64,000 nucleotides of DNA from Escherichia phage outra, in sequence record MN850645.1; one strand, written 5' to 3'. Below, in pieces: positions 16,172 through 64,000 of the stretch. The notes under the pieces are model-generated. The model had not been told where the DNA came from and did no database searches. It saw only the letters and a program-made list of their open reading frames with translations. Position 1 is the first letter of the stretch. Each line of letters begins with the position of its first letter. The translations under genes were made by a program, and so were the position numbers.

Positions 16172-17065
16172 ATGAAAGTTAGTATTCTACATGGTGTTGG
16201 CTGTTATGTTACTGATGTAGACGTTAAAGTCTTTACATTCTCTGGTGGAGAACAACATGTTCAACTAGACACGAATCTATCAGGTTTCAATCATGCTACA
16301 GACAGAATCTTACTCTCTTTAGAAGTAAGATCTGCTAAAGACTTGATGACTTTGGTTATGACTAAGAATGCATTGGACAATATGCTATATCATAAACCAT
16401 ATTGTGTTGATTTGCTCATGTTGTATGTGCCATATGCACGACAAGACAGAGTGTGTGAACCTGGGGAAGCATTCGGAGTTAAAGCATTTGCTTCTATAAT
16501 TAATTCATTAAATTTCTCACGTGTTATCGTTGCTGATCCACATAGTGATGTTACTCCAGCAGTGTTTGACAGACTCTGTGTAATATCTCAAGAAGAGATT
16601 GCTTACGAAACTTTAAAGTGGAAGTTACGTATGGAGAATTTTGCTCTTGTTAGCCCTGATGGTGGTGCTCTTAAGAAAATATTTAAATTATCTAAGAAAA
16701 TGTCTTTAGATGTGTTCTGTGCAGAGAAGGTTAGAGATACTGCAACAGGTGCTATTGTTCGTACAGACATTTCTGTACAGGATTTCAATAAACGTAACCT
16801 GATGATCGTAGATGATATCTGTGACGGCGGTAGAACTTTTATTGAATTGGCTAAAGTGCTACGTGCTCGTAACGCAGGTAAGATTGAGTTATATGTTACA
16901 CACGGTATCTTTTCTAAAGGTCTTAAAGAGTTAAGTGAGCACTTTGACTGCATTCATTCTCTTAATGTGTGGGAAGATAACATCCAAGAAGATTCCGGTG
17001 TTCTTGTTAAGAATCAGTCAGATTTGCAACAACAAATTGTATCTCCATACGTGTGGAATTTTTAA
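16172..17065 (+). CDS. ribose-phosphate pyrophosphokinase (Prs) homologue; candidate ADP-ribose pyrophosphokinase
   Basis: YVPYARQDRV (Prs Y.GYARQDR motif) and LMIVDDICDGGRTF (PRPP-binding loop); RBS AAGGAG. Confidence 0.8.
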   Translation: MKVSILHGVGCYVTDVDVKVFTFSGGEQHVQLDTNLSGFNHATDRILLSLEVRSAKDLMTLVMTKNALDNMLYHKPYCVDLLMLYVPYARQDRVCEPGEAFGVKAFASIINSLNFSRVIVADPHSDVTPAVFDRLCVISQEEIAYETLKWKLRMENFALVSPDGGALKKIFKLSKKMSLDVFCAEKVRDTATGAIVRTDISVQDFNKRNLMIVDDICDGGRTFIELAKVLRARNAGKIELYVTHGIFSKGLKELSEHFDCIHSLNVWEDNIQEDSGVLVKNQSDLQQQIVSPYVWNF

Positions 17066-17136: not shown

Positions 17137-18870
17137 ATGAATATTTTTGCACCTTTTGCTACTGATTGGTATAAACCTGGTCACAAGCAGATGTACAACC
17201 AAAATACAAAACTCATTTTCTCTAATTTAACTCCTCGTAATGATAAAAACTTTGCACACTATGCAGATCGTGAAGCACGTGGTGTGATTGTTTTAGGTAT
17301 TCGTCGAGCAGTCACTGATGCTCTTGTAATTATGTGGGACAGCTTCTTTAAAATGTCTCGTAGTGCAGCAGTAAATAAATTTTATCGTATGTCTAAAAAT
17401 GCATTAGGTGCTTCTGCTCCTTCTGCTGAATGTTGGGGAGAATTGCACGATTTAGGTTATCTTCCGCTAGAAGTTCGATCTCTGCCAGAAGGTGTTTTGT
17501 GTCCTATTGGTGTTCCTGTGTTTACTGTGCATAATACTTTAGAAAAATTCTTTTGGTTAACTAACTATGTGGAAACACTCTTGTCAGATGAAACTTGGAA
17601 GACAATGACTAATGCCACAGCAGCTTTTCAGTATAAGCGTATCGCTATGGCGTATGCGATGGCAACGTGTGATAACATTGATCACGTTAATTTCCAGTGT
17701 CATGACTTTAGCCTACGTGGTTTAAGCAATATCGAAGATGGTTATAAGAGTGGTATCGCTCATTTGGCATCTTTCACAGGTACAGATAATATTCTGGCTA
17801 TTGAAACTGTGCATGATTACTATGGTATTGATTATGATCAGTTTGTTGCAGGTTCTATTCCGGCAACAGAACATTCAGTAGCAACGACTAACATTGGAGC
17901 TATTGTTGAAGATCTAAAGGAACATTTTCCACGTCTTAAAGCTGATGTAGATTGGCTTCGTTATGTAGCAGAAAAAGAGTTTCTTCGTCGTTATATTGAA
18001 GAAATTGTTCCAGAAGGTTTTTGTTCATATGTAGCAGATTCTTATGATTACTGGACTGTATTGACTAACATTCTGGTAGAGTTGAAAGATTCCATCATGT
18101 CACGAAATGGTCGTCTTGTTATTCGTCCAGATTCAGGAGATCCGGTTAAAGTTGTTGCAGGGTACAATGTTGAATCTTTTGATAACTATGAAGATCTTTT
18201 AAATAATGGTATTGCTACAGCCACTGAAGTAGTACATTTGGCTGATGTTAATAAGTATTACAATGTTCTTCAGGATTGCAGTGTTGCTGATTGTATTGAT
18301 GAAACTTATGAGATTCCTTATTGTGAAGCAGTAGGTTCTATTCAAATCCTTTGGGAAGTGTTTGGCGGCACTATCAATCGAAAAGGCTACAAGGTTCTTG
18401 ATCAGCACATCGGTATGATTTATGGTGATTCTATTACTGTTGAACGAGAACACGAAATCTTACGCCGACTGAAGAAGAAAGGCTTTGCTGCTTCCAATAT
18501 TGTATTTGGTGTTGGTAGTTATACTTATCAGTTCAATACACGAGATACTTTTGGTTTTGCTGTTAAAGCAACAGGTAGTATCATCGGTGAACACGAAATT
18601 TTGGTAAGTAAGGAGCCTAAAACTGATCCTGGTAAACGCTCTGCAAAAGGTTTTATTAAGGTTGTTAAGGATACAAATGGTAAACTTTCTCTTGTGGATA
18701 ATCTTTCTTTTAAAGATATCCAAGATGAAGACAATGAGTTAAAAGTTATCTTCAGGGATGGTACGGTTATTACACCACAAGTAGAAGGACGTGATGAAAC
18801 ATTTACTGATATCCGTAACCGTGTTGATGTAGAGGTTCTTCGTACTATGGGAACCATCCAGGTTGACTAA
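17137..18870 (+). CDS. nicotinamide phosphoribosyltransferase (Nampt/NadV) homologue
   Basis: FATDWYKPGHKQMY N-terminal Nampt signature, 577 aa; RBS AAGGAG. Confidence 0.8.
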   Translation: MNIFAPFATDWYKPGHKQMYNQNTKLIFSNLTPRNDKNFAHYADREARGVIVLGIRRAVTDALVIMWDSFFKMSRSAAVNKFYRMSKNALGASAPSAECWGELHDLGYLPLEVRSLPEGVLCPIGVPVFTVHNTLEKFFWLTNYVETLLSDETWKTMTNATAAFQYKRIAMAYAMATCDNIDHVNFQCHDFSLRGLSNIEDGYKSGIAHLASFTGTDNILAIETVHDYYGIDYDQFVAGSIPATEHSVATTNIGAIVEDLKEHFPRLKADVDWLRYVAEKEFLRRYIEEIVPEGFCSYVADSYDYWTVLTNILVELKDSIMSRNGRLVIRPDSGDPVKVVAGYNVESFDNYEDLLNNGIATATEVVHLADVNKYYNVLQDCSVADCIDETYEIPYCEAVGSIQILWEVFGGTINRKGYKVLDQHIGMIYGDSITVEREHEILRRLKKKGFAASNIVFGVGSYTYQFNTRDTFGFAVKATGSIIGEHEILVSKEPKTDPGKRSAKGFIKVVKDTNGKLSLVDNLSFKDIQDEDNELKVIFRDGTVITPQVEGRDETFTDIRNRVDVEVLRTMGTIQVD

Positions 18871-19617: not shown

Positions 19618-19693
19618 GGTTCCATAGCTCACTGACGAGAGCGCACACCTCATAAGTGTCGAGGGCAGGGATTGTAACCCTGGGGAACCACCA
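19618..19693 (+). tRNA. tRNA, anticodon CAT (Met or Ile-lysidine)
   Basis: Hand-folded cloverleaf: acceptor GGTTCCA, D-loop with GG, anticodon loop CTCATAA, encoded CCA; coordinates +/- 2. Confidence 0.6.
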
Positions 19694-19724
19694 TTTAAAA
19701 GGAGGTGCTATGCATCTCCTATAT

Positions 19725-19810
19725 GCAAGTGTGGTGGAATTGGTGATACACATTGTGCTTAAAACGCAACGCTTAAATGATTGAGGGTTCGAATCCCTCC
19801 ACTTGCACCA
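19725..19810 (+). tRNA. tRNA-Leu (TAA), type II
   Basis: Acceptor GCAAGTG/CACTTGC, anticodon loop CTTAAAA, long variable arm, T-arm GAGGGTTCGAATCCCTC, CCA. Confidence 0.65.
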
Positions 19811-19812
19811 AC

Positions 19813-19921
19813 GCCTAGTAGGGTATTTGGTAATTCCGAGGCCATCAAAGCCTGAAAAATATGTTAGACCGCTTTGTCTAACTAAATACGAAATATGGTT
19901 CGATTCCATAACTAGGCTCCC
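19813..19921 (+). ncRNA. atypical ~105-nt tRNA-like element (possible anticodon UCA); may be a pseudo-tRNA
   Basis: Perfect 7-bp acceptor pairing GCCTAGT/ACTAGGC and canonical T-arm TATGGTTCGATTCCATA, but oversized internal region with extra 6-bp hairpin; putative anticodon loop CATCAAA is non-canonical (A at position 33). Confidence 0.3.
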
Positions 19922-19953
19922 AATTTAAATAGTAATTTTTTAATAAAAATATC

Positions 19954-19982
19954 TTGACATTTACTTAGTTTTTTGTTATAGT
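19954..19982 (+). promoter_or_regulatory. sigma70-like promoter (TTGACA-N17-TATAGT)
   Basis: Near-consensus hexamers ~12 nt upstream of next tRNA-like gene. Confidence 0.5.
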
Positions 19983-19993
19983 CATTATGAAAA

Positions 19994-20075
19994 CGGGGTG
20001 TATCTCACCTGACTTCTAATCAGGCGTTAACCGAGTAATTGGAGTATGCAGGTTCGAATCCTGTCACCCCGGCCA
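19994..20075 (+). tRNA. tRNA-like gene, possible Arg (TCT); structure atypical
   Basis: 7-bp acceptor CGGGGTG/CACCCCG, T-arm GCAGGTTCGAATCCTGT, CCA, and clean anticodon arm CCTGA-CTTCTAA-TCAGG; D-arm spacing could not be folded canonically by hand. Confidence 0.35.
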
Positions 20076-20093
20076 AAAAGTTTTAAAAACTAC

Positions 20094-20122
20094 TTGACAA
20101 GCAAGATAGTTTTATGTTAGAT
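20094..20122 (+). promoter_or_regulatory. sigma70-like promoter (TTGACA-N17-TTAGAT)
   Basis: Upstream of tRNA-Ser. Confidence 0.4.
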
Positions 20123-20138
20123 TTAAAGTATGGTAACT

Positions 20139-20228
20139 GGAAGGTAGGGCGCAGCGGTGCGCAACCAGGTTTGAACCCTGGCCCATTGTAGCGATACGGT
20201 GATGGTTCGACTCCATTATCTTCCTCCA
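20139..20228 (+). tRNA. tRNA-Ser (TGA), type II
   Basis: Acceptor GGAAGGT/ATCTTCC, anticodon arm CCAGG-TTTGAAC-CCTGG, long variable arm, T-arm GATGGTTCGACTCCATT, CCA; 3' end anchored to track ORF 20199. Confidence 0.7.
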
Positions 20229-20246
20229 AATTCTCTTAGGAGCTTT

Positions 20247-20399
20247 ATGAATTATAAAACTATTGGACAGGTTGTTACCGGAGTTAAGATTGTAAATAAT
20301 AAAGTTGTTTATGAGTATTCTAATCTTCAACAATCTGAAGATGGTAAGAATATTCGTATGGTAAAAGCAGAACAAAAAGATTCCGGTTGTTTTGAATAA
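20247..20399 (+). CDS. hypothetical small protein (50 aa)
   Basis: Track ORF 20199..20399 starts inside tRNA-Ser; internal ATG at 20247 with RBS TAGGAG is the more plausible start. Confidence 0.3.
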   Translation: MNYKTIGQVVTGVKIVNNKVVYEYSNLQQSEDGKNIRMVKAEQKDSGCFE

Positions 20400-20407
20400 T
20401 TAAGAAC

Positions 20408-20493
20408 GGTAGATTGGTGAAATGGTAGCCACAACAGTTTGCTAAACTGTCGTCGGAAACGGCGTGTAGGTTCAAGTCCTACATCTACCGCCA
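20408..20493 (+). tRNA. tRNA-Ser (GCT), type II
   Basis: Acceptor GGTAGAT/ATCTACC, anticodon arm ACAGT-TTGCTAA-ACTGT, T-arm GTAGGTTCAAGTCCTAC, CCA. Confidence 0.65.
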
Positions 20494-20664
20494 AGTTATC
20501 TTTAATGTAGCTTGTTGCTCTTAGTTGCTTGGTGTAACTTTTTGGAAGGATGGCTGCAACCATCTTACTTTAATAGAGTAAACTTTCGGCAGATGGCCCC
20601 CCACCATCTTACCGATACCTCATAGTTAGTGGTGCGAACACTGGCTATTTTAAAGATAATTTAT

Positions 20665-20740
20665 ACATCGTTAGCTTAGTTGGTAGAGCAAGGGGCTTTT
20701 AACTCCAAGGTCGAAGGTTCGAATCCTTCACGATGTACCA
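20665..20740 (+). tRNA. tRNA-Lys (TTT)
   Basis: Acceptor ACATCGT/ACGATGT, D-loop AGTTGGTAG, anticodon loop CTTTTAA, T-arm GAAGGTTCGAATCCTTC, CCA. Confidence 0.65.
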
Positions 20741-20745
20741 AACAC

Positions 20746-20832
20746 GTAGGTATCGCATAGCGGCAATTGCTGGAGACTGTAAATCTCCTGCCCTTCGGGG
20801 CTTCGTTGGTTCGAGTCCAACTACCTGCACCA
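20746..20832 (+). tRNA. tRNA-Tyr (GTA), type II
   Basis: Anticodon arm GGAGA-CTGTAAA-TCTCC, long variable arm, T-arm GTTGGTTCGAGTCCAAC, CCA. Confidence 0.65.
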
Positions 20833-20839
20833 AATTAAA

Positions 20840-20924
20840 GATGGATTGGCCTAGTGGTTGGGCGACGGACTGTTAATCCGTGAACGAAAGTTCTAGCAAG
20901 GTTCAAATCCTTGATCCATCGCCA
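20840..20924 (+). tRNA. tRNA with anticodon GTT (Asn-like) and an unusually long variable arm
   Basis: Acceptor GATGGAT/ATCCATC, anticodon arm ACGGA-CTGTTAA-TCCGT, variable hairpin GAACGAAAGTTC, T-arm CAAGGTTCAAATCCTTG, CCA. Confidence 0.5.
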
Positions 20925-21003
20925 AATAGTGCTTGTAGAGTTAATAGAAACCTCTAGAATTTTCTAGAATTGTAGGTATCAAATCCTACCAAGCAAATAT
21001 TTT

Positions 21004-21078
21004 GCTCCTATCGTATAACGGCTATTACGGTTGCCTTGTAAGCAACTTATCAGGGTTCGAGTCCTTGTGGGAGCACCA
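21004..21078 (+). tRNA. tRNA-Thr (TGT)
   Basis: Acceptor GCTCCTA/TGGGAGC, anticodon arm GTTGC-CTTGTAA-GCAAC, T-arm CAGGGTTCGAGTCCTTG, CCA. Confidence 0.65.
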
Positions 21079-21095
21079 ATTTTAACTCTAAAGGA

Positions 21096-21425
21096 GTGTA
21101 TGTGACAGAAAAAGAGTTAGAGAAATATTTTAATATCAATGTTTTCGATGGTTTTGATGATATCGAAGATGTTGAAAGATATTATGAAGTAGAGTTAGAT
21201 AAGGATAACATTGTAATTCTTTCTGCCACTTATGATTGTGCATATTATGAAGGTGAATCTCACGTTTATTTTTATGATATGAAAACATCTTTGTTTTATG
21301 AAGTACACGCATATCATTGTTCTTGTTATGGCTTAGAAGGTCAGTGGGAACCTGAAGAAATAGGTGATTTGGACTTTACTATTGCATATCTAAACAGACG
21401 TGGTGCATCTAATATTTTAAAATAA
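21096..21425 (+). CDS. hypothetical protein (109 aa)
   Basis: ORF track; GTG start adjacent to AAGGAG; HCSCYG Cys/His segment. Confidence 0.45.
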   Translation: MYVTEKELEKYFNINVFDGFDDIEDVERYYEVELDKDNIVILSATYDCAYYEGESHVYFYDMKTSLFYEVHAYHCSCYGLEGQWEPEEIGDLDFTIAYLNRRGASNILK

Positions 21426-21439
21426 ATATCAAAAGCCTC

Positions 21440-21469
21440 TTGACAAAGAGGCTAATAATATGTTAGAGT
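21440..21469 (+). promoter_or_regulatory. sigma70-like promoter inside an 8-bp inverted repeat (AGCCTCTTGACAAAGAGGCT)
   Basis: TTGACA lies in the loop of a perfect palindrome; -10-like TAGAGT about 18 nt downstream; upstream of tRNA-Gly. Confidence 0.45.
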
Positions 21470-21480
21470 AATATTGTTAA

Positions 21481-21555
21481 GCGGGTATAGTGTTAATGGT
21501 AGCATATGAGGTTTCCACCCTCCAGGTGCAGGTTCAAGTCCTGTTACTCGCTCCA
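21481..21555 (+). tRNA. tRNA-Gly (TCC)
   Basis: Acceptor GCGGGTA/TACTCGC, anticodon loop TTTCCAC, T-arm GCAGGTTCAAGTCCTGT, CCA. Confidence 0.6.
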
Positions 21556-21655
21556 AGATTATTTAAATGGAATCGCTAGAGAAAATTTCTCTTTTCGCTC
21601 ATGGTTTTCTCCTTCAAACTCTAGCGGTTCTTTTTAAGTGATTTTTTAGTTTTAT

Positions 21656-21730
21656 TGGAGATTAGCCTAGTGGGAAGGCAACGGCCTTTGAAGTCGTGAT
21701 GACTAGGTTCGATTCCTAGATCTCCAGCCA
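21656..21730 (+). tRNA. tRNA-Gln (TTG)
   Basis: Acceptor TGGAGAT/ATCTCCA, anticodon loop CTTTGAA, T-arm CTAGGTTCGATTCCTAG, CCA. Confidence 0.65.
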
Positions 21731-21737
21731 ATATTTA

Positions 21738-21813
21738 CAGTGCGTAGCGCAGTTGGTAGCGTGGGAGCTTTGGATGCTTCGGGTCGCAGGTTCGAGTCCT
21801 GCCGCACTGACCA
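21738..21813 (+). tRNA. tRNA-Pro (TGG)
   Basis: Acceptor CAGTGCG/CGCACTG, D-loop AGTTGGTA, anticodon loop TTTGGAT, T-arm GCAGGTTCGAGTCCTGC, CCA. Confidence 0.65.
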
Positions 21814-21818
21814 AATTT

Positions 21819-21893
21819 GCAGAGATAGCTGAGACGGATTAGTGCTACCCTGAAAAGGTAGAAAGGATGGATCGTTACCATCTCTCTGCACCA
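21819..21893 (+). tRNA. tRNA-Phe (GAA), non-canonical T-loop
   Basis: Acceptor GCAGAGA/TCTCTGC, anticodon arm CTACC-CTGAAAA-GGTAG, T-arm GATGG-ATCGTTA-CCATC, CCA. Confidence 0.55.
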
Positions 21894-21970
21894 AATAACA
21901 CCATCCAAGGAGTAGACTTGGTTAACTGTCAATAGCACATTGAGGCTTCTTACAGTGGTGTATTTATTAT

Positions 21971-22055
21971 GGCTAAGTGGTGGAATGGTATACACGATAC
22001 GCTTAGAACGTATTGCCCCAAGGGATTGTGAGTTCGAGTCTCACCTTAGCTACCA
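21971..22055 (+). tRNA. tRNA-Leu (TAG), type II
   Basis: Anticodon arm ATACG-CTTAGAA-CGTAT, long variable arm, T-arm GTGAGTTCGAGTCTCAC, CCA. Confidence 0.65.
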
Positions 22056-22143
22056 TATCTAAGAGATATCATAGGGTTTGCAACGGATATCTACCGTCCT
22101 GTTAAGGATACCACGCCAAGACGGGTTATAAAGGGTTAGCCAT

Positions 22144-22219
22144 TGATAGTGTGAAGCTGGCGTTTCGAGTGCTTTCATAAGGCATTGCGAGAAGAGTTCG
22201 ATTCTCTTACTATCAACCA
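22144..22219 (+). tRNA. tRNA, anticodon CAT (Met/Ile2 class)
   Basis: Acceptor TGATAGT/ACTATCA, anticodon loop TTCATAA, T-arm AAGAGTTCGATTCTCTT, CCA. Confidence 0.55.
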
Positions 22220-22234
22220 AATTACTACAGATTG

Positions 22235-22313
22235 CGCGGGATAGAGGAGTCTGGTCGTCCTCGCCAGTTTCATATGCTGGAGATCATCGGTTCGAATCCG
22301 ATTCCCGCCTCCA
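22235..22313 (+). tRNA. tRNA, anticodon CAT; unpaired 1:72 position (initiator-like feature)
   Basis: 5' CGCGGGA vs 3' TCCCGCC leaves a C:C mismatch at 1:72; anticodon arm CCAGT-TTCATAT-GCTGG; T-arm ATCGGTTCGAATCCGAT, CCA. Confidence 0.5.
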
Positions 22314-22371
22314 TTAAATACCTCCCTTCTGGTGTAATGATTAAATTGCATTGACACTTCAAGGAACTCAT

Positions 22372-22454
22372 AGCCGGGTAGATTTAAAAGAGTATGGTAC
22401 TCAATATGGCTCCAAACCATAGATCAAGGGGTTCGATTCCTCACCTTGCTGCCA
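22372..22454 (+). tRNA. tRNA-Trp (CCA) candidate; boundaries uncertain
   Basis: Clean anticodon arm TATGG-CTCCAAA-CCATA and T-loop GGGGTTCGATTCC with CCA end, but acceptor pairing is imperfect by hand. Confidence 0.35.
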
Positions 22455-22459
22455 ATTAT

Positions 22460-22535
22460 TGTGGTATCGTACAGATGGTTAGTACACTCGACCGATAATC
22501 GAGAAACAACGGTTCGATTCCGTTTACCACGACCA
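22460..22535 (+). tRNA. tRNA-Ile (GAT)
   Basis: Acceptor TGTGGTA/TACCACG, anticodon arm CTCGA-CCGATAA-TCGAG, T-arm AACGGTTCGATTCCGTT, CCA. Confidence 0.65.
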
Positions 22536-58323: not shown

Positions 58324-58755
58324 TTAATCAGTGAAAATTACGCTCACATCTTCTTTAGAGAAGAGTTTATGATCTTCACCTTTTGTCTCAAGAGTTTCAT
58401 ACAGGTTAAGAAGTTCTGAAACATCTTTCTCTACTAGTTTCTTCAATGTTGCAATTTTCTGTTTGCGATTTTTAATACGTTCAGCTACAACCTTACGTTG
58501 GTATCCGGCAGTACGATAACCTGAGAAAGTTACACCAGTGAGACTTGCAGTTACAGGATCGTAATGACGTTCAATCTGAAATTTATTAAAAGGTACAGCG
58601 TCATCACGAATAATCTTACCGCCATTACTTACTTGACGAAGACCAGTAACTTGTTCTAGTCGTGCCATAGAAATCTTTGGAGACAGACCAGAGTCCAGGT
58701 TCATACCGTTGTTAATCAGTGCTTTCAGGGTGATTTTGCTGTTCAGTGTACTCAT
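58324..58755 (-). CDS. hypothetical protein (143 aa; start may be Met18 at 58704)
   Basis: ORF track; overlaps methyltransferase 3' end unless internal start is used. Confidence 0.4.
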   Translation of the reverse strand: MSTLNSKITLKALINNGMNLDSGLSPKISMARLEQVTGLRQVSNGGKIIRDDAVPFNKFQIERHYDPVTASLTGVTFSGYRTAGYQRKVVAERIKNRKQKIATLKKLVEKDVSELLNLYETLETKGEDHKLFSKEDVSVIFTD

Positions 58756-59443
58756 TTAGTCGTTCCTCCGCTTGCTTAAAAATATTTACATCGGCTTCAC
58801 AGCCTAAGTATTCTCTACCTGTTAAAAGTGCCGCAACTTGTGTTGTTGCACTTCCAGAGAAGAAGTCTAAGACTACATCTCCTTCGTTGGTATGTATATT
58901 AATAAGGTCACAAAACAAAGTCAAGTGTTTTTGTGTCGGATGAAAACGATCTGCTCCTTGATAGATAGGATACTCAAACACACCCTTGTGGTAGGAGGCA
59001 TTGAAGGTTGGCTTAGAACCTTTAACACAAACAATAGCCATCTCTTTAGCGTTACTAAGGTAGTTAACACCACTGTTGATGGGTACAGGGTTTGTTTTAA
59101 TCCATTCAATAGTACGGAACATACGAAAACCAAGCGGTTCAAGGATTTCACGTAGCTCCTGGATCTTCCAGATATCATACCAAACTATGCAAGTACCACC
59201 TTTTCTAAGCACCCTATAGGCTTCTTTGAATACTTCTTTAAAGTAAGGAATATCTACAACATCCCAATCCCCAAAGTTGTAAGATACACGGAATCTATCT
59301 GTATCTTTTCCAGTAGGCTCTCCAGATTGAAAATTTGTGTCACGAGAAATAGCATATGGTGGGTCAGTAAGAATCAAATCTACACTATTGCTTTCGAGGG
59401 TTTGCAGGTAGTTTAACGCGGTGTTGTTTACAAATTCGCTCAT
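58712..59443 (-). CDS. DNA N6-adenine or N4-cytosine methyltransferase (beta-class)
   Basis: DPPY catalytic motif near N-terminus and DFFSGSATT AdoMet-binding motif near C-terminus. Confidence 0.7.
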   Translation of the reverse strand: MSEFVNNTALNYLQTLESNSVDLILTDPPYAISRDTNFQSGEPTGKDTDRFRVSYNFGDWDVVDIPYFKEVFKEAYRVLRKGGTCIVWYDIWKIQELREILEPLGFRMFRTIEWIKTNPVPINSGVNYLSNAKEMAIVCVKGSKPTFNASYHKGVFEYPIYQGADRFHPTQKHLTLFCDLINIHTNEGDVVLDFFSGSATTQVAALLTGREYLGCEADVNIFKQAEERLNEYTEQQNHPESTD

Positions 59444-59503: not shown

Positions 59504-60451
59504 TTAGAAACAGTGCAGGAAGTTTCGACCATACTGCAAACCAATAGGAGCAAATGGGATATCATCATCGAAATCTTGAACAACAGGTTCTGGTTCTTTC
59601 GGTGCTGGCTCTTTCTTCTCTACTTTTTTAGTTTCTTTCTTAACTTCTTGTACTGGGGTAGACATTCCACGGATAGCAGCAGCTACTTTATCAGACAAAG
59701 CAAGAACTTCACGAGCAGCTTCAATAATCTCTTCTGCCGTTACAGTTTTACCTGTATGATCACGACAAGCGTTAAGAATTGCGTGTCCAACTGAAGCACC
59801 AAGATCATAGTCAGTCACATCAACGCCACGATCTTTAGCAATTTCTGCTTTCAGAGTAACAGTTGCAGATTGTACCACACCAGCCAAGTCGAAAGCATCA
59901 CCTTTCACACCAGCACGTAGAAGCTCCAGAGCGCCGTTTACAGCGTGTCCTGTTTCAATCCCTACGGTATCACGTTTTTTGTAGTTAGGCTTGCTACCTT
60001 CGTTATTAGATGGCTTATTTCCACCTTTTGAAGAAGATTGTGCTTGCTGAACACCTTCTGTTGAAAGAATAGTGATTTTACCTTTAGAGGAATTGTAGTA
60101 TGTTTTGCCATTCCATTCAGAAGGTTTAACATCCATAGTTAGTTCTACACCTTTTTCGATAGTAACCCACTTGTCACCATCTTTAACTTGCAGGTTTTCA
60201 TGTTCTGGATGCAGTTTAACTTCACCTAGGCTAACCCAAACACCTTTATCATCAGCACTAGCACCTTTCTCTTTAATAAGCAGAGATGCTTTGTGAGTTG
60301 ATTCAATTTTCTTATCTGGCTGACCTGCAACCTTAATATAAGAGACTTTCATTTCATCAAACTTATCCAGTTTGACATATTCAACGATACCTTCAGCCCA
60401 GAATGCTTCTTTTTTAGTACGACGGTCGATTTCAGAATTAATTACTGGCAT
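59504..60451 (-). CDS. single-stranded DNA-binding protein-like
   Basis: Acidic DFDDDIPF motif (matches bacterial SSB C-terminal tail) 15 aa from the C-terminus; Gly/Ser/Asn-rich linker; biased codon usage. Confidence 0.5.
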   Translation of the reverse strand: MPVINSEIDRRTKKEAFWAEGIVEYVKLDKFDEMKVSYIKVAGQPDKKIESTHKASLLIKEKGASADDKGVWVSLGEVKLHPEHENLQVKDGDKWVTIEKGVELTMDVKPSEWNGKTYYNSSKGKITILSTEGVQQAQSSSKGGNKPSNNEGSKPNYKKRDTVGIETGHAVNGALELLRAGVKGDAFDLAGVVQSATVTLKAEIAKDRGVDVTDYDLGASVGHAILNACRDHTGKTVTAEEIIEAAREVLALSDKVAAAIRGMSTPVQEVKKETKKVEKKEPAPKEPEPVVQDFDDDIPFAPIGLQYGRNFLHCF

Positions 60452-60467
60452 AAATTCTCCTCTATAA

Positions 60468-60866
60468 TTACATTACTTTAACACAAAACTCTCGTAAAAG
60501 AGTAGCGTCAGTTTCTTCCAACAGGTATTTACCAAGACCAATACCAAATCCTATTTCACCACTTTCGAAATGGAGGATTTGTATCTTTTCTCCACCAAGG
60601 TTAATTACTTTTGCTTTTCCAGGATTATCCAAAACATCTCGTATTGTATCCTGTAGTAACATAAGCTCACGTTTTGTGATAGTGGTTTCAGATATCTCTT
60701 TGTTTTCTACCCGCACTGTTAAACGGTTGTATCCACCAAAGAGACATAGTATTTGAATAAAAAAGGTATTATCTTGAGGTTCAACATCTTTTTTAGTTAG
60801 CTCAAGACGGTTAGTTTCCCTACTGTAGAACGTCTCGACTAAGATTTTAGAACGATTATCTGTCAT
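60468..60866 (-). CDS. hypothetical protein (132 aa)
   Basis: ORF track only. Confidence 0.4.
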   Translation of the reverse strand: MTDNRSKILVETFYSRETNRLELTKKDVEPQDNTFFIQILCLFGGYNRLTVRVENKEISETTITKRELMLLQDTIRDVLDNPGKAKVINLGGEKIQILHFESGEIGFGIGLGKYLLEETDATLLREFCVKVM

Positions 60867-60909: not shown

Positions 60910-61503
60910 TTAAATCTTAAATTCTTCGTTGTTAAATGAATCCAGTGTACGTACTTCTGGTTCTTTGGGAATGAAAACGTCTTTTACAAAGCGGAACATA
61001 GGGAAACGTTCTGCCATTTTACGGACGTGTGCTTCCTTACCTGTGTATCGGTGATTAATAGTACAAATATTAGTTTTCAGTGCAAATTCAAAGTCTGGAT
61101 GATATACATAATTTTGACCATCCCAGTAACACAGGCAAATAGCCACATCAAAGTTCCATACGATTTCACTGCGTACACCCTCTTCCATGATCATAAAGTT
61201 AAACTTAAGATCTTTATAGTATGCTTCAAATACCCATTTCAAATGTGGTAGTTCGGCATAAGTGTGTTCTGTTTGCTTAGTAAGTTGTTTAACATTACGT
61301 GCACCAACACCCAACATCAAAAATTTCTCTACTAGTACGAGTGTATTGTGGTTAGGCATACGCAAGTAAATGTCAATATCTTGCGCAGGTTTCTCTAATC
61401 GCCAATCACGTACAGCGCCGCCAGCTACAATTGCAAACGGATCTACCAGTTGGCACATACGTAATACTTCTAAAGCTCGTACTTTTTGATCTTCAATATT
61501 CAT
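60910..61503 (-). CDS. Pol-beta-superfamily nucleotidyltransferase (CCA-adding-enzyme head-like, putative)
   Basis: GGAVRDWRL...DIDIY resembles GGxVRD...DxD of tRNA nucleotidyltransferases; start trimmed to ATG 61503 (RBS AGGAGA). Confidence 0.45.
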   Translation of the reverse strand: MNIEDQKVRALEVLRMCQLVDPFAIVAGGAVRDWRLEKPAQDIDIYLRMPNHNTLVLVEKFLMLGVGARNVKQLTKQTEHTYAELPHLKWVFEAYYKDLKFNFMIMEEGVRSEIVWNFDVAICLCYWDGQNYVYHPDFEFALKTNICTINHRYTGKEAHVRKMAERFPMFRFVKDVFIPKEPEVRTLDSFNNEEFKI

Positions 61504-61687
61504 ATTTTCTCCTATCGTGTCCACTCTTTGTGTTGTTCTACATACTCAAGCATTTCATTATATAGTGCTTTTTCATATAATGCGGCGTTAGTTTCTTACT
61601 ACCAGGTAGCGTACTCTCGCCTTCCAAATCATTAATACCTTCACCATATACGGTAAGCATAAAAACTCCTTTAAAATCAAAGAGATG

Positions 61688-64000
61688 TCAGTGACAAGAC
61701 GCCCATGAGTTACCAACATCGTAACCAGCAGTGAGAGGTACATTAAGATTGTAATACTCACCAGCTTTATTAACAGCGATAGATGCTAATTCTCCAGCAC
61801 GACTGTAGGCTGTAAACCAACCACCTTTCGGAGATTCATGTACGTTAGCCCAAATCTTGCCAGTACGTTTCTCTTCCTCTTCTTTCCAGGCATTAACTTT
61901 ATCCAAACATTCTTTATCAATTTTCTTTTGTTCTTCTGGATCATCAACTTGAGTCCAACCTAAAGATTCTTTAGAGAACCATTTAAAATGCACCAGATCA
62001 CGAGTTACTTCAAGCTGTGCTTCATCGTGATATGCAATCATTTGTTGAACGAATGACTTATTTTTCCAGTCATCAACAAAAAAGTCAACAGCTAATCCTT
62101 CTTCTTCGATAAGATCGTCGTAGATAACCATTGCTCTTTTTGCACAAATAACACCACCACTCTGGAACAGAGAGTTAAGTATTGCGTGTGCAGATCGTGT
62201 AGGTACTTTCCTACCATCAATACCCAGAATGTATTTCTTACCTGTTTTAACCCAAAAGTCATGCAGACGTTCTTTAAGAAGCGCAAGAGGTTTTGCAGCT
62301 TCCCAGAAAGCATCGTATACAAGCTGTCCTGTATACATATCACTACCTATAGTTTTTGCTACTTTTGCAGCTTGAGCACCATAAGTAATACCATACTTAA
62401 CAGATTTAGCAGGGCTTCGTTCAAACTTACGACCAATAGTGTCAGAAATACGTCGAGCCATCATTGTATGAACGTCATTAGGTTTTTCCAATAACAGAGC
62501 ATTACAATATTCGTGTGGTTCCTGCTCGTACCGCCAACAGTAGTGTGATTCTATTTTTGCCTCAAGAGAATCAAAGTCATAACCAATTTGGAAGTATTTT
62601 GGAACTTCTACACCAAATAAGTTACGCATTTCATATCCGTACAGAGATGTTACACGTGGGATATTTGCTACTAGCCTATGTTTCATACGAGACGTAGCTG
62701 CATCACACGTTGCAGCAGGAGTTGGTATACGACCATCAGCCCTTACTGCTGCCAGATAACCTTTATCGTAATCCTCTTCATCTTCTTCCCAATCAGCACC
62801 ACCCCCTAGAATAGAGTTCCTACGGTGTTTATACGTAAGATACTGCACAATCTGCGTAGCATAAGGAAACTTTTCACCTAGTGCTTCCAAGTTAGGACAA
62901 ATATCTTTCTCTTGCCCTTTTGTAAAGGAAGGGTTCGTAAGCACTTTAACACCACGACCTTTAGCTTTAGCAATACGATCTCTTAGTTTCCATTCCAAAG
63001 TTTCTGGTGTGCACTCCAGATGATCACATCTGTCCTGGCAGAAGTTAGATGCTAATGTTTGATCAACATAGTCACGAATAGCTTTCTCCATTTGTGCTTC
63101 ATCTTTCTTAATCTTAGTGCCAGATTTAAGAGTGATATCTTTATCTTTATATTCAGATGGACTCCAACCTAAACCAACTAACCAGTTTTTAATATGTGTA
63201 GTGTCGTCTAAAGTAGCAGGTACTGTAGGATCACAAATAGGTTCTTCTGCTGGAATAGGTAGTTTAAACTCTTTACCTAATGCAAATAGCCACCAACCAT
63301 CTTCTTTTTGTACAAGTTCACCAGAATGTTTCTCTGCAAACTTTATCATGTTACTTGAAGGTTCACCATTCTTTTTAAACTGTAGTTTAGGTGGAATGAA
63401 TGATTTCAAATAACCTTTAGTAGCAGGTTTAGGAGGTAGCACAGGTTCTGCCTCTAAACGACATGCTTCCATTCGAGCATCCAGATCACGAATATTATCT
63501 TCTGCTTGTTTCATATTGAAAGCAAAGCCACGGTGCTCTTGACGTGTAATAATATCAGCTACACGTTGTTCTAAGTTAAATGGTTCAGACCACTTGTTAT
63601 AATCACCCCACTCTTCCATCAAATAACGGAACACTGCGGTGTTAGCTTTGTTATCGTAAATACAGTAATACAGCATATCTGCTGCAAATGTTTTAAATCT
63701 TTCAGTTTCAGGAATGTTTTTTCTAAAATCAATTTTAACATCCCCTCCAGCTTTCTTAGATAACTCTGCCAGACTATGACCACCGAAGCGATCAGGGTTT
63801 AGTGTCTTACTTAAGATCATAGTATCACAAATTTCAATGTTACTATTACCCCAAGTATTGTACTTAATACTGTAGTTGAGTTTAAAAAATAATTTAATTG
63901 CCAGTAAGTCAAAGTTAATGATGTTATGTCCAACTACTTTGGTAATTTTATAGTTTGAATTACCTTTAAATTTACCTGTTCCATTTACAAAATCAGGAAA
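61688..64000 (-). CDS. DNA polymerase, family A (T7 gp5-like); N-terminus lies beyond window end
   Basis: DRFGGHSLAEL (cf. T7 KRFGSHALEAWG), motif A YDFDSLEAKI, motif B KYGITYGAQAAK, motif C AYHDEAQLEV, C-terminus NSWASCH (cf. T7 NWAICH). Frame is open upstream of track start 63820, with a VVGHNIINFD-like Exo II segment near 63900-63930. Confidence 0.8.
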   Translation of the reverse strand, partial: FPDFVNGTGKFKGNSNYKITKVVGHNIINFDLLAIKLFFKLNYSIKYNTWGNSNIEICDTMILSKTLNPDRFGGHSLAELSKKAGGDVKIDFRKNIPETERFKTFAADMLYYCIYDNKANTAVFRYLMEEWGDYNKWSEPFNLEQRVADIITRQEHRGFAFNMKQAEDNIRDLDARMEACRLEAEPVLPPKPATKGYLKSFIPPKLQFKKNGEPSSNMIKFAEKHSGELVQKEDGWWLFALGKEFKLPIPAEEPICDPTVPATLDDTTHIKNWLVGLGWSPSEYKDKDITLKSGTKIKKDEAQMEKAIRDYVDQTLASNFCQDRCDHLECTPETLEWKLRDRIAKAKGRGVKVLTNPSFTKGQEKDICPNLEALGEKFPYATQIVQYLTYKHRRNSILGGGADWEEDEEDYDKGYLAAVRADGRIPTPAATCDAATSRMKHRLVANIPRVTSLYGYEMRNLFGVEVPKYFQIGYDFDSLEAKIESHYCWRYEQEPHEYCNALLLEKPNDVHTMMARRISDTIGRKFERSPAKSVKYGITYGAQAAKVAKTIGSDMYTGQLVYDAFWEAAKPLALLKERLHDFWVKTGKKYILGIDGRKVPTRSAHAILNSLFQSGGVICAKRAMVIYDDLIEEEGLAVDFFVDDWKNKSFVQQMIAYHDEAQLEVTRDLVHFKWFSKESLGWTQVDDPEEQKKIDKECLDKVNAWKEEEEKRTGKIWANVHESPKGGWFTAYSRAGELASIAVNKAGEYYNLNVPLTAGYDVGNSWASCH

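Follow-up and report, generated by a model that had tools for sequence, protein, structure and literature searches.

The 197-aa protein encoded beside the DNA polymerase gene of Escherichia phage outra represents the class II nucleotidyltransferases in a reduced and rewired form, and it is not a canonical CCA-adding enzyme. Throughout its family (~1,000 clusters), the elements specific to CCA addition have all been lost, yet the site for metal and NTP is still strictly conserved. We tentatively predict, at somewhat less than an even chance, an active enzyme that adds nucleotides to 3′ ends without a template and is tied to a replication and nucleotide-metabolism module. All positions refer to the window, the whole stretch of 64,000 nucleotides of sequence record MN850645.1 that was analyzed. 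An earlier note made from these letters had pointed to a GGxVRD/DxD catalytic core in a protein of about 200 aa and had proposed that it may restore tRNA 3′ ends together with the tRNA array of the phage. The motif stands, and the predicted fold is like that of class II enzymes, but the proposed ties to the tRNA array and to the restoring of CCA ends were not supported.

The gene and its motif A

The gene is a minus-strand ORF at 60910-61503, with a TAA stop at 60910-60912 and an ATG at 61501-61503 (Table 1). This start is backed by an AGGAG sequence and by RefSeq, which annotates the same 594-bp CDS in phage alia under the name 'nucleotidyltransferase'; a longer ORF from a GTG at 61524 is possible and lacks Shine-Dalgarno support. 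Motif A reads GGAVRDW-x8-DIDIY (GGAVRDWRLEKPAQDID), and the spacing of eight residues from GGAVRD to DxD equals that of E. coli Cca (GGAVRDALLGLPVKDRD). The protein thus carries the motif A of class II CCA-adding enzymes, GGxVRD followed by DxD. A pattern of the form GG..RD-x6-12-DxD was found a single time when the 64-kb window was translated in six frames, and 200 shuffled windows contained it nowhere, which bears out the motif observation of the earlier note.

As a sequence, the gene is not new and has already been catalogued. Its product has the same sequence as phi92 gp158 (100% identity), a protein named "nucleotidyltransferase" in RefSeq, and falls into PHROG 1614 ('nucleotidyltransferase') with E=2e-34 across residues 7-193; the outra copy itself is ordinary, since phi92 was deposited with an identical gene. 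Over this region, outra shows 100% identity to Escherichia phage vB_EcoM_ESCO8 and about 98-99% to alia and others of the phi92 group (Justusliebigvirus). Curated cellular models barely recognize the protein. The Pfam PolyA_pol head model PF01743 gives 19.1 bits where 23 are required and extends over residues 26-81 only, and the NCBIfam CCA equivalogs NF009814 and TIGR03671 score 15 bits against 290 and 13.9 against 281, so that all of these curated thresholds are missed. Homologues carry a precomputed assignment to Pfam PF26128, of which we found no mention in the searchable literature, and PADLOC returned nothing for the nucleotidyltransferase. Some GenBank records of homologues use the name 'putative tRNA nucleotidyl transferase/poly(A) polymerase', which is probably misleading for this family.

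Table 1. Positions in the window of the nucleotidyltransferase gene, its sequence elements, and the neighboring genes
Feature	Position	Strand	Basis
CDS, predicted stand-alone class-II-type nucleotidyltransferase, 197 aa	60910..61503	-	ORF list and sequence, identity to phi92 gp158, PHROG 1614, AlphaFold model
Shine-Dalgarno AGGAG, 5 nt 5′ of the ATG	61509..61513	-	Read from sequence
Motif A GGAVRDWRLEKPAQDIDIY (G28-Y46): NTP-binding GG turn and metal-binding D42 and D44 (predicted)	61366..61422	-	Invariance; aligns with motif A of E. coli Cca and PcnB
Beta4-beta5 hairpin LKWVFEAYYKDLKFNFMIM; N102 at the third-carboxylate site, E93 opposite	61186..61242	-	Model strands 88-96 and 99-106; HMM alignment
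Segment SEIVWNFDVAIC; RRD replaced by VWN at the putative motif B (RRDFTxNA) site	61135..61170	-	Secondary-structure order and Cca and PcnB sequences (inferred)
C-terminal helix EAHVRKMAERFP, probably the first neck helix (carrier of EDxxR in class II)	61000..61035	-	Conservation; correspondence inferred
Family A DNA polymerase (PolA) gene, immediately upstream, running past the window end	61688..64000	-	PHROG 17, E=4e-97; annotation of alia and ESCO8
HNH homing-endonuclease gene remnant, 40-aa ORF, between polymerase and nucleotidyltransferase	61538..61660	-	Comparison with ESCO8 and alia
132-aa protein, function unassigned	60468..60866	-	Gene order in the window
SSB-like protein, 315 aa, two positions downstream of the nucleotidyltransferase	59504..60451	-	Weak match to a PHROG SSB family; strong match to phrog_4477
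DNA methyltransferase	58712..59443	-	Gene order in the window

Conservation of the family and its restriction to phages

When 1.84 billion cluster representatives were searched exhaustively with HMMER, 997 relatives passed a threshold of E≤1e-3 and 280 passed E≤1e-10. Because nearly all of the 150 relatives listed among these 997 matches are 175-230 aa long, the nucleotidyltransferase is, judging by length, a stand-alone domain; ten longer members (261-400 aa) contained no extra recognizable Pfam domain. The outra protein belongs to PHROG 1614 as a stand-alone protein of ~200 aa that matches the profile over its full length. The signature of that family is AGGA[PV]RDW...A-D-[LI]-D-x-Y, and the query has every element looked for: AGGA[PV]RDW...DxDxY, Y82, K162, and FP at 167-168. 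Conservation was read from an alignment of 127 members that are 23-46% identical to the query, and a separate alignment of 139 sequences served for column counts. G28, G29, W34, D42, and D44 are invariant in the 127 members, and Q6, A10, A27, A30, R32, D33, Y82, and K162 are conserved in at least 90% of them. Such strict conservation across sequences this divergent indicates an active enzyme.

The family is essentially restricted to phages, since a survey of 185,579 bacterial and archaeal species, one genome each, gave only 12 matches, all of them on contigs of metagenome-assembled genomes. The lengths of several of these 12 contigs come close to those of known phage genomes that carry the family. 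IMG/VR contains 95 confirmed loci, and among isolated phages, carriers of the gene are known in the phi92 and phAPEC8 groups, in ICP1, in Zobellviridae vibriophages, and in a Curvibacter phage, among others. The ICP1 member, ORF223 (locus L045, 5959-6372; BFVD F1D1P7), is truncated to 137 aa and matches residues 3-126 only, leaving a head that lacks the C-terminal third; its gene is placed close to the genome end, away from replisome genes, and in several ICP1 isolates the family match runs across two annotated ORFs.

Fold and catalytic residues

With the 127-sequence alignment, AlphaFold gave a model with a pLDDT of 92.6 and a pTM of 0.85, whose structured part stops near residue 175. A word-indexed search with the single protein sequence had returned only 2 relatives, and AF2 run on that 3-sequence alignment reached a pLDDT of 63; the exhaustive HMMER search and the 127-sequence alignment superseded both. 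The elements of the model follow in the order helix, β1, GG-helix, β2 (DxD), helix, β3, β4-β5 hairpin, two strands, helix, strand, and helix. Matched against the class II head (PMC11646218), which carries two extra strands, this order identifies the predicted structure as such a head, with both strands, together with the first neck helix.

The earlier note had proposed a structure comparison, and when Foldseek was run against the PDB, the first 43 matches were all class II enzymes. Lower in the fold ranking came TENT5 (8.0), Pol X (7.4), ANT(6) (7.1), and MenT1 (6.6), together with the MNT-like TM1012 (5.7) and CdnE (5.6). The model thus has the head-domain fold of both the class II CCA-adding enzymes and poly(A) polymerase I. 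Against BFVD, Foldseek found many similar phage proteins of 165-215 aa (LKD16, PP2, phiAS7, Cd1, and ICP1 ORF223) and also proteins of pithoviruses.

The predicted active site departs from the usual one at its third ligand. The third acidic residue of the fold sits on strand 5 (PMC11646218), which in the model comprises residues 99-106 (LKFNFMIM), and the query has N102 there in place of the h[DE]h pattern. The position was mapped from the strands of the model and from the family HMM, which aligns D114 (EIDVLF) of fHe-Kpn01 gp22 to column 102. In the 139-sequence alignment, column 102 holds Q in 115 members, N in 17, and D in 5, and pair counts from the 127 sequences agree. Column 93, on the neighboring strand, holds E in 81 and D in 15 and is acidic in 69% of members; three of the five members with D at 102 have K or R at position 93. 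About 28% of members lack an acidic residue at 93 and 102 alike, and together with the N/Q at the third-carboxylate position, this pattern suggests that the polymerase-type chemistry may be altered.

Beyond motif A, residue correspondences were inferred from secondary-structure order, because comparing profiles with profiles and with sequences (E. coli Cca, E. coli PcnB, and the PDB) gave alignments of the motif A region alone. The C-terminal helix carries residues whose conservation is specific to the family, namely H159, K162 (K or R in 99%), R166, F167, and P168. The protein is slightly acidic, with a pI of 6.3, which is also the family median, and has few conserved basic residues; this would be uncommon in a nucleic-acid-binding protein that works by itself.

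Elements of CCA-adding enzymes and poly(A) polymerase I

Other hallmarks of the cellular enzymes were absent. The RRD of motif B occurs in none of the 127 family members and in no frame of the window. A conserved [ED]DxxR (motif D) was not found either: such strings turn up in 11 of the 127 members, scattered over different positions as chance would predict, and in no frame of the window. The PAP I signature [LIV][LIV]G[RK][RK]Fx[LIV]h[HQL][LIV], as defined in PMC8208693, matched 0 of 127 members, and PcnB, used as a control, matched it (LVGRRFRLAHV). The query, with only 197 aa, has none of these three motifs and is too short for a neck, a body, and a tail domain (about 340 aa or more). Without RRD, EDxxR, the PAP I signature, and the body and tail, the protein cannot, by the known mechanism, choose C, C, and A or keep a tRNA in place.

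Genuine phage CCA-adding enzymes look different. A tblastn search with E. coli Cca retrieved 463 phage records, and the positive control, phiAS5 ORF0088, has 351 aa, GGAVRD...DRD, RRDFTMN, and EDPVR, with an RNA ligase gene 2.3 kb away.

Gene neighborhood in outra and its relatives

In outra, the gene lies among genes for a DNA polymerase, an SSB-like protein, and a DNA methyltransferase (Table 1), and in relatives a primase/helicase follows just beyond the polymerase. The SSB-like gene is annotated as SSB in ESCO9 and ESCO32. Its product has no Pfam match, and its ...DFDDDIPF motif is followed by ~15 residues, so the acidic tail motif is not terminal.

The HNH remnant upstream of the nucleotidyltransferase marks a deletion. 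Compared with ESCO8, alia, and all other relatives, 448 bp are missing at about 61570/61571, inside a 597-bp HNH gene; the length is not a multiple of 3, and a short T run flanks the site. ESCO8 and the window are otherwise essentially identical, with one mismatch in the 7 kb compared. In relatives, the PolA gene is named 'DNA polymerase, part I' or 'intein-containing DNA polymerase precursor' and is often flanked by HNH genes, marking the region as a hotspot of selfish elements.

The tRNA array (19618-22535, plus strand) lies ~38 kb from the nucleotidyltransferase, with the structural module in between. All 16 tRNA genes of the phage encode the 3′ CCA. Three of the tRNAs have a CAT anticodon, and in relatives the arrays are interrupted by HNH endonuclease genes and small ORFs (annotation of VEcB). 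Just upstream of the array, at 16172-17065 and 17137-18870 on the plus strand, are a ribose-phosphate pyrophosphokinase-like gene and a Nampt-like (nicotinamide/nicotinate phosphoribosyltransferase) gene, a pair that resembles a phage NAD+-salvage pair; we saw no NMN adenylyltransferase in the window. A role of the nucleotidyltransferase as that missing step of NAD salvage was considered and rejected in view of its synteny with the replisome, its presence in small phages without an annotated Nampt, and its being a Pol-beta protein and not a HIGH-motif enzyme.

Synteny across the family

The family is linked to replisome genes rather than to tRNA genes. We clustered the ORFs neighboring the gene at 80 IMG/VR viral loci and found a primase/helicase at 58 and PolA at 46, the only widely common neighbors besides the homing HNH endonuclease. 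After dereplication at 60% identity, with 3 kb or more of flanking sequence required on either side, 37 lineages remained, and 26 of them had a primase/helicase or PolA within 6 kb, on the same strand in 25 of the 26. The gene order varies (helicase-polymerase-nucleotidyltransferase, helicase-nucleotidyltransferase-polymerase, nucleotidyltransferase-helicase-polymerase, and polymerase-nucleotidyltransferase-helicase), and the strand is almost always the same. At the remaining loci, the gene sits amid small early-type ORFs with a thymidylate synthase, DNA methyltransferase, or phosphoesterase gene nearby.

tRNA genes, by comparison, lie within 6 kb of the nucleotidyltransferase at only 6 of 54 loci. 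Vibrio phage 402E50-1, with a genome of 46.9 kb, lacks tRNA genes altogether and carries a family member downstream of helicase, polymerase, and 5′-3′ exonuclease genes. The one locus where a tRNA link looks plausible (L011, 9155-11108) belongs to a divergent relative on a 148-kb contig, with an array of 10 tRNA genes 2.6 kb downstream and a phosphoesterase gene in between. We found no family member in KP34, a close relative of fHe-Kpn01, and the gene therefore behaves as an accessory gene. The synteny may also reflect nothing more than residence in the region of early and middle accessory genes.

Proposed mechanism and alternative explanations

We propose that the gene encodes the stand-alone catalytic head and first neck helix of a class II Pol-beta nucleotidyltransferase. 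In this predicted site, D42 and D44 would bind Mg2+ and an NTP, and E93 on the neighboring strand, assisted by N102 (N/Q), would take the place of the usual third carboxylate. The enzyme would then transfer nucleotides, without a template, onto the free 3′-OH of a nucleic-acid end, leaving short tails on RNA ends, and possibly DNA ends, that are made during phage replication or host takeover. A partner protein would probably be needed for substrate binding. In E. coli, PAP I (pcnB) controls ColE1 plasmid replication via tailing of antisense RNA I. A tailing enzyme is made less secure by the acidic character of the protein, by the altered third ligand, and by the chance that the synteny is passive. 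A more far-reaching version of the proposal, which we regard as rather unlikely, is a phage-only branch of class II cut down to the catalytic head, with the third ligand moved to E93 and with a predicted activity unlike any described for this scaffold: untemplated addition to RNA primers or DNA 3′ ends at the fork with PolA and helicase, or tagging of host RNA for takeover or counter-defence.

The reading of the earlier note, a minimal CCA- or A-adding enzyme that repairs damaged CCA ends of phage or host tRNAs, draws on the likeness of fold and motif A to class II tRNA nucleotidyltransferases, on the 16 tRNA genes of the phage, on the name given to GenBank homologues, and on the divergent locus with its array 2.6 kb away. 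We judge it improbable. Motifs B and D and the body and tail are missing from a protein that stops at 197 aa, the NCBIfam CCA models stay at 15 and 14 bits where 290 and 281 are called for, and the distant array consists of tRNA genes that already encode CCA; a member exists in a phage free of tRNA genes, and tRNA genes are rare near the gene across the family. Phage enzymes that truly belong to this class have at least 350 aa, can be retrieved with E. coli Cca as the BLAST query, possess motifs A, B, and D, and are encoded near an RNA ligase gene. Restoration of tRNA ends in concert with the array was thus not borne out. The same note had offered a minimal signaling or antitoxin nucleotidyltransferase as its alternative, and this too has fallen away: an MNT-type antitoxin or CD-NTase-type signaling enzyme, for which small size and membership in the Pol-beta superfamily alone would speak, is effectively refuted by the fold ranking, with TM1012 and CdnE lower down, and by gene context, and we consider it extremely improbable. 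The protein has neither the features of an MNT antitoxin (GSx10DxD, about 100-140 aa, an adjoining HEPN toxin gene) nor those of a CD-NTase/CBASS cyclase (a two-lobed fold, about 300-400 aa, an adjoining effector gene).

Two further readings keep the class II head and change its task. The protein could transfer nucleotides onto a small molecule or a protein (adenylylation or nucleotidylylation) or could make a nucleotide signal or decoy, serving host takeover or counter-defence, which we hold to be unlikely. It could also be an NTP-binding subunit of the phage replisome, accessory or regulatory and with weakened catalysis, a pseudo-enzyme that keeps the head fold; the N/Q at the third-carboxylate position in about 95% of members, the tight synteny with helicase and PolA, and the lack of a nucleic-acid-binding domain are consistent with such a role. 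However, DxD, GG, R32, and D33 are invariant or nearly so in very divergent sequences, which is the pattern of a selected active site, and E93 supplies a neighboring carboxylate in 69% of members, so that we take a pseudo-enzyme to be very doubtful. The addition of nucleotides to 3′ ends by an active enzyme remains our preferred reading.

Short 'PolyA_pol head' nucleotidyltransferases are annotated in hundreds of phage genomes, among them phi92-like and ICP1 myoviruses, Zobellviridae, and T7-like podoviruses. We found no paper testing the biochemistry of any of them, and a search of the literature on the function of the family, phi92 gp158, the LKD16 nucleotidyltransferase, 2LA3, and phage PAP-like enzymes returned only the report of Gp22 toxicity described below. 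A link to DNA modification through a paper on glycosylated 5-hydroxycytosine was rejected, as that paper concerns unrelated sugar nucleotidyltransferases. The family is a well-defined target for biochemistry, and its study could show the class II scaffold put to a new use, in host takeover or in phage replication.

Comparison with known systems

The class II CCA-, A-, and CC-adding enzymes (B. stearothermophilus 1MIV, T. maritima 3H37, A. aeolicus 4WBY, and phiAS5 ORF0088) have in common with the outra protein the head fold with two extra strands and an N-terminal helix followed by GGxVRD-x8-DxD. The outra protein is half as long, has no body or tail and no RRD or EDxxR, and has N102 at the third carboxylate; its similarity to these enzymes is limited to ~45 residues around motif A, and its gene is not near RNA ligase or tRNA genes. 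Compared with E. coli PcnB (3AQL), it lacks the PAP I signature, RRD, and EDxxR as well as the neck, body, and C-terminal RNA-binding region, and it is acidic, not basic. A bacterial counterpart in architecture is S. pneumoniae NP_344798.1 (PDB 2LA3), a stand-alone 'CCA-adding enzyme head domain' of 191 aa whose function is likewise unassigned; the two proteins are 9% identical, and the family profile does not detect 2LA3.

Other parallels in organization are phage proteins. Gp22 of Klebsiella phage fHe-Kpn01 and the proteins of LKD16 (Pseudomonas), PP2 (Pectobacterium), phiAS7 (Aeromonas), and Cd1 (Caulobacter) are likewise stand-alone, 165-215 aa long, and encoded in the replication module, but in sequence they are no more than distant relatives. 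Gp22 is a CCA-enzyme-like protein of 182 aa whose gene directly follows PolA, and its expression in E. coli is toxic (PMC7291057); among the short phage 'PolyA_pol head' nucleotidyltransferases, toxicity in E. coli has been shown for Gp22 only. A passage in PMC11760895 describes E. coli PAP I, too, as toxic on expression. With 16 bits against the family HMM, Gp22 is a distant relative of the outra protein, from which it differs in keeping an acidic residue, D114, at the third catalytic position and in having GGCIRDEY instead of GGA[PV]RDW.
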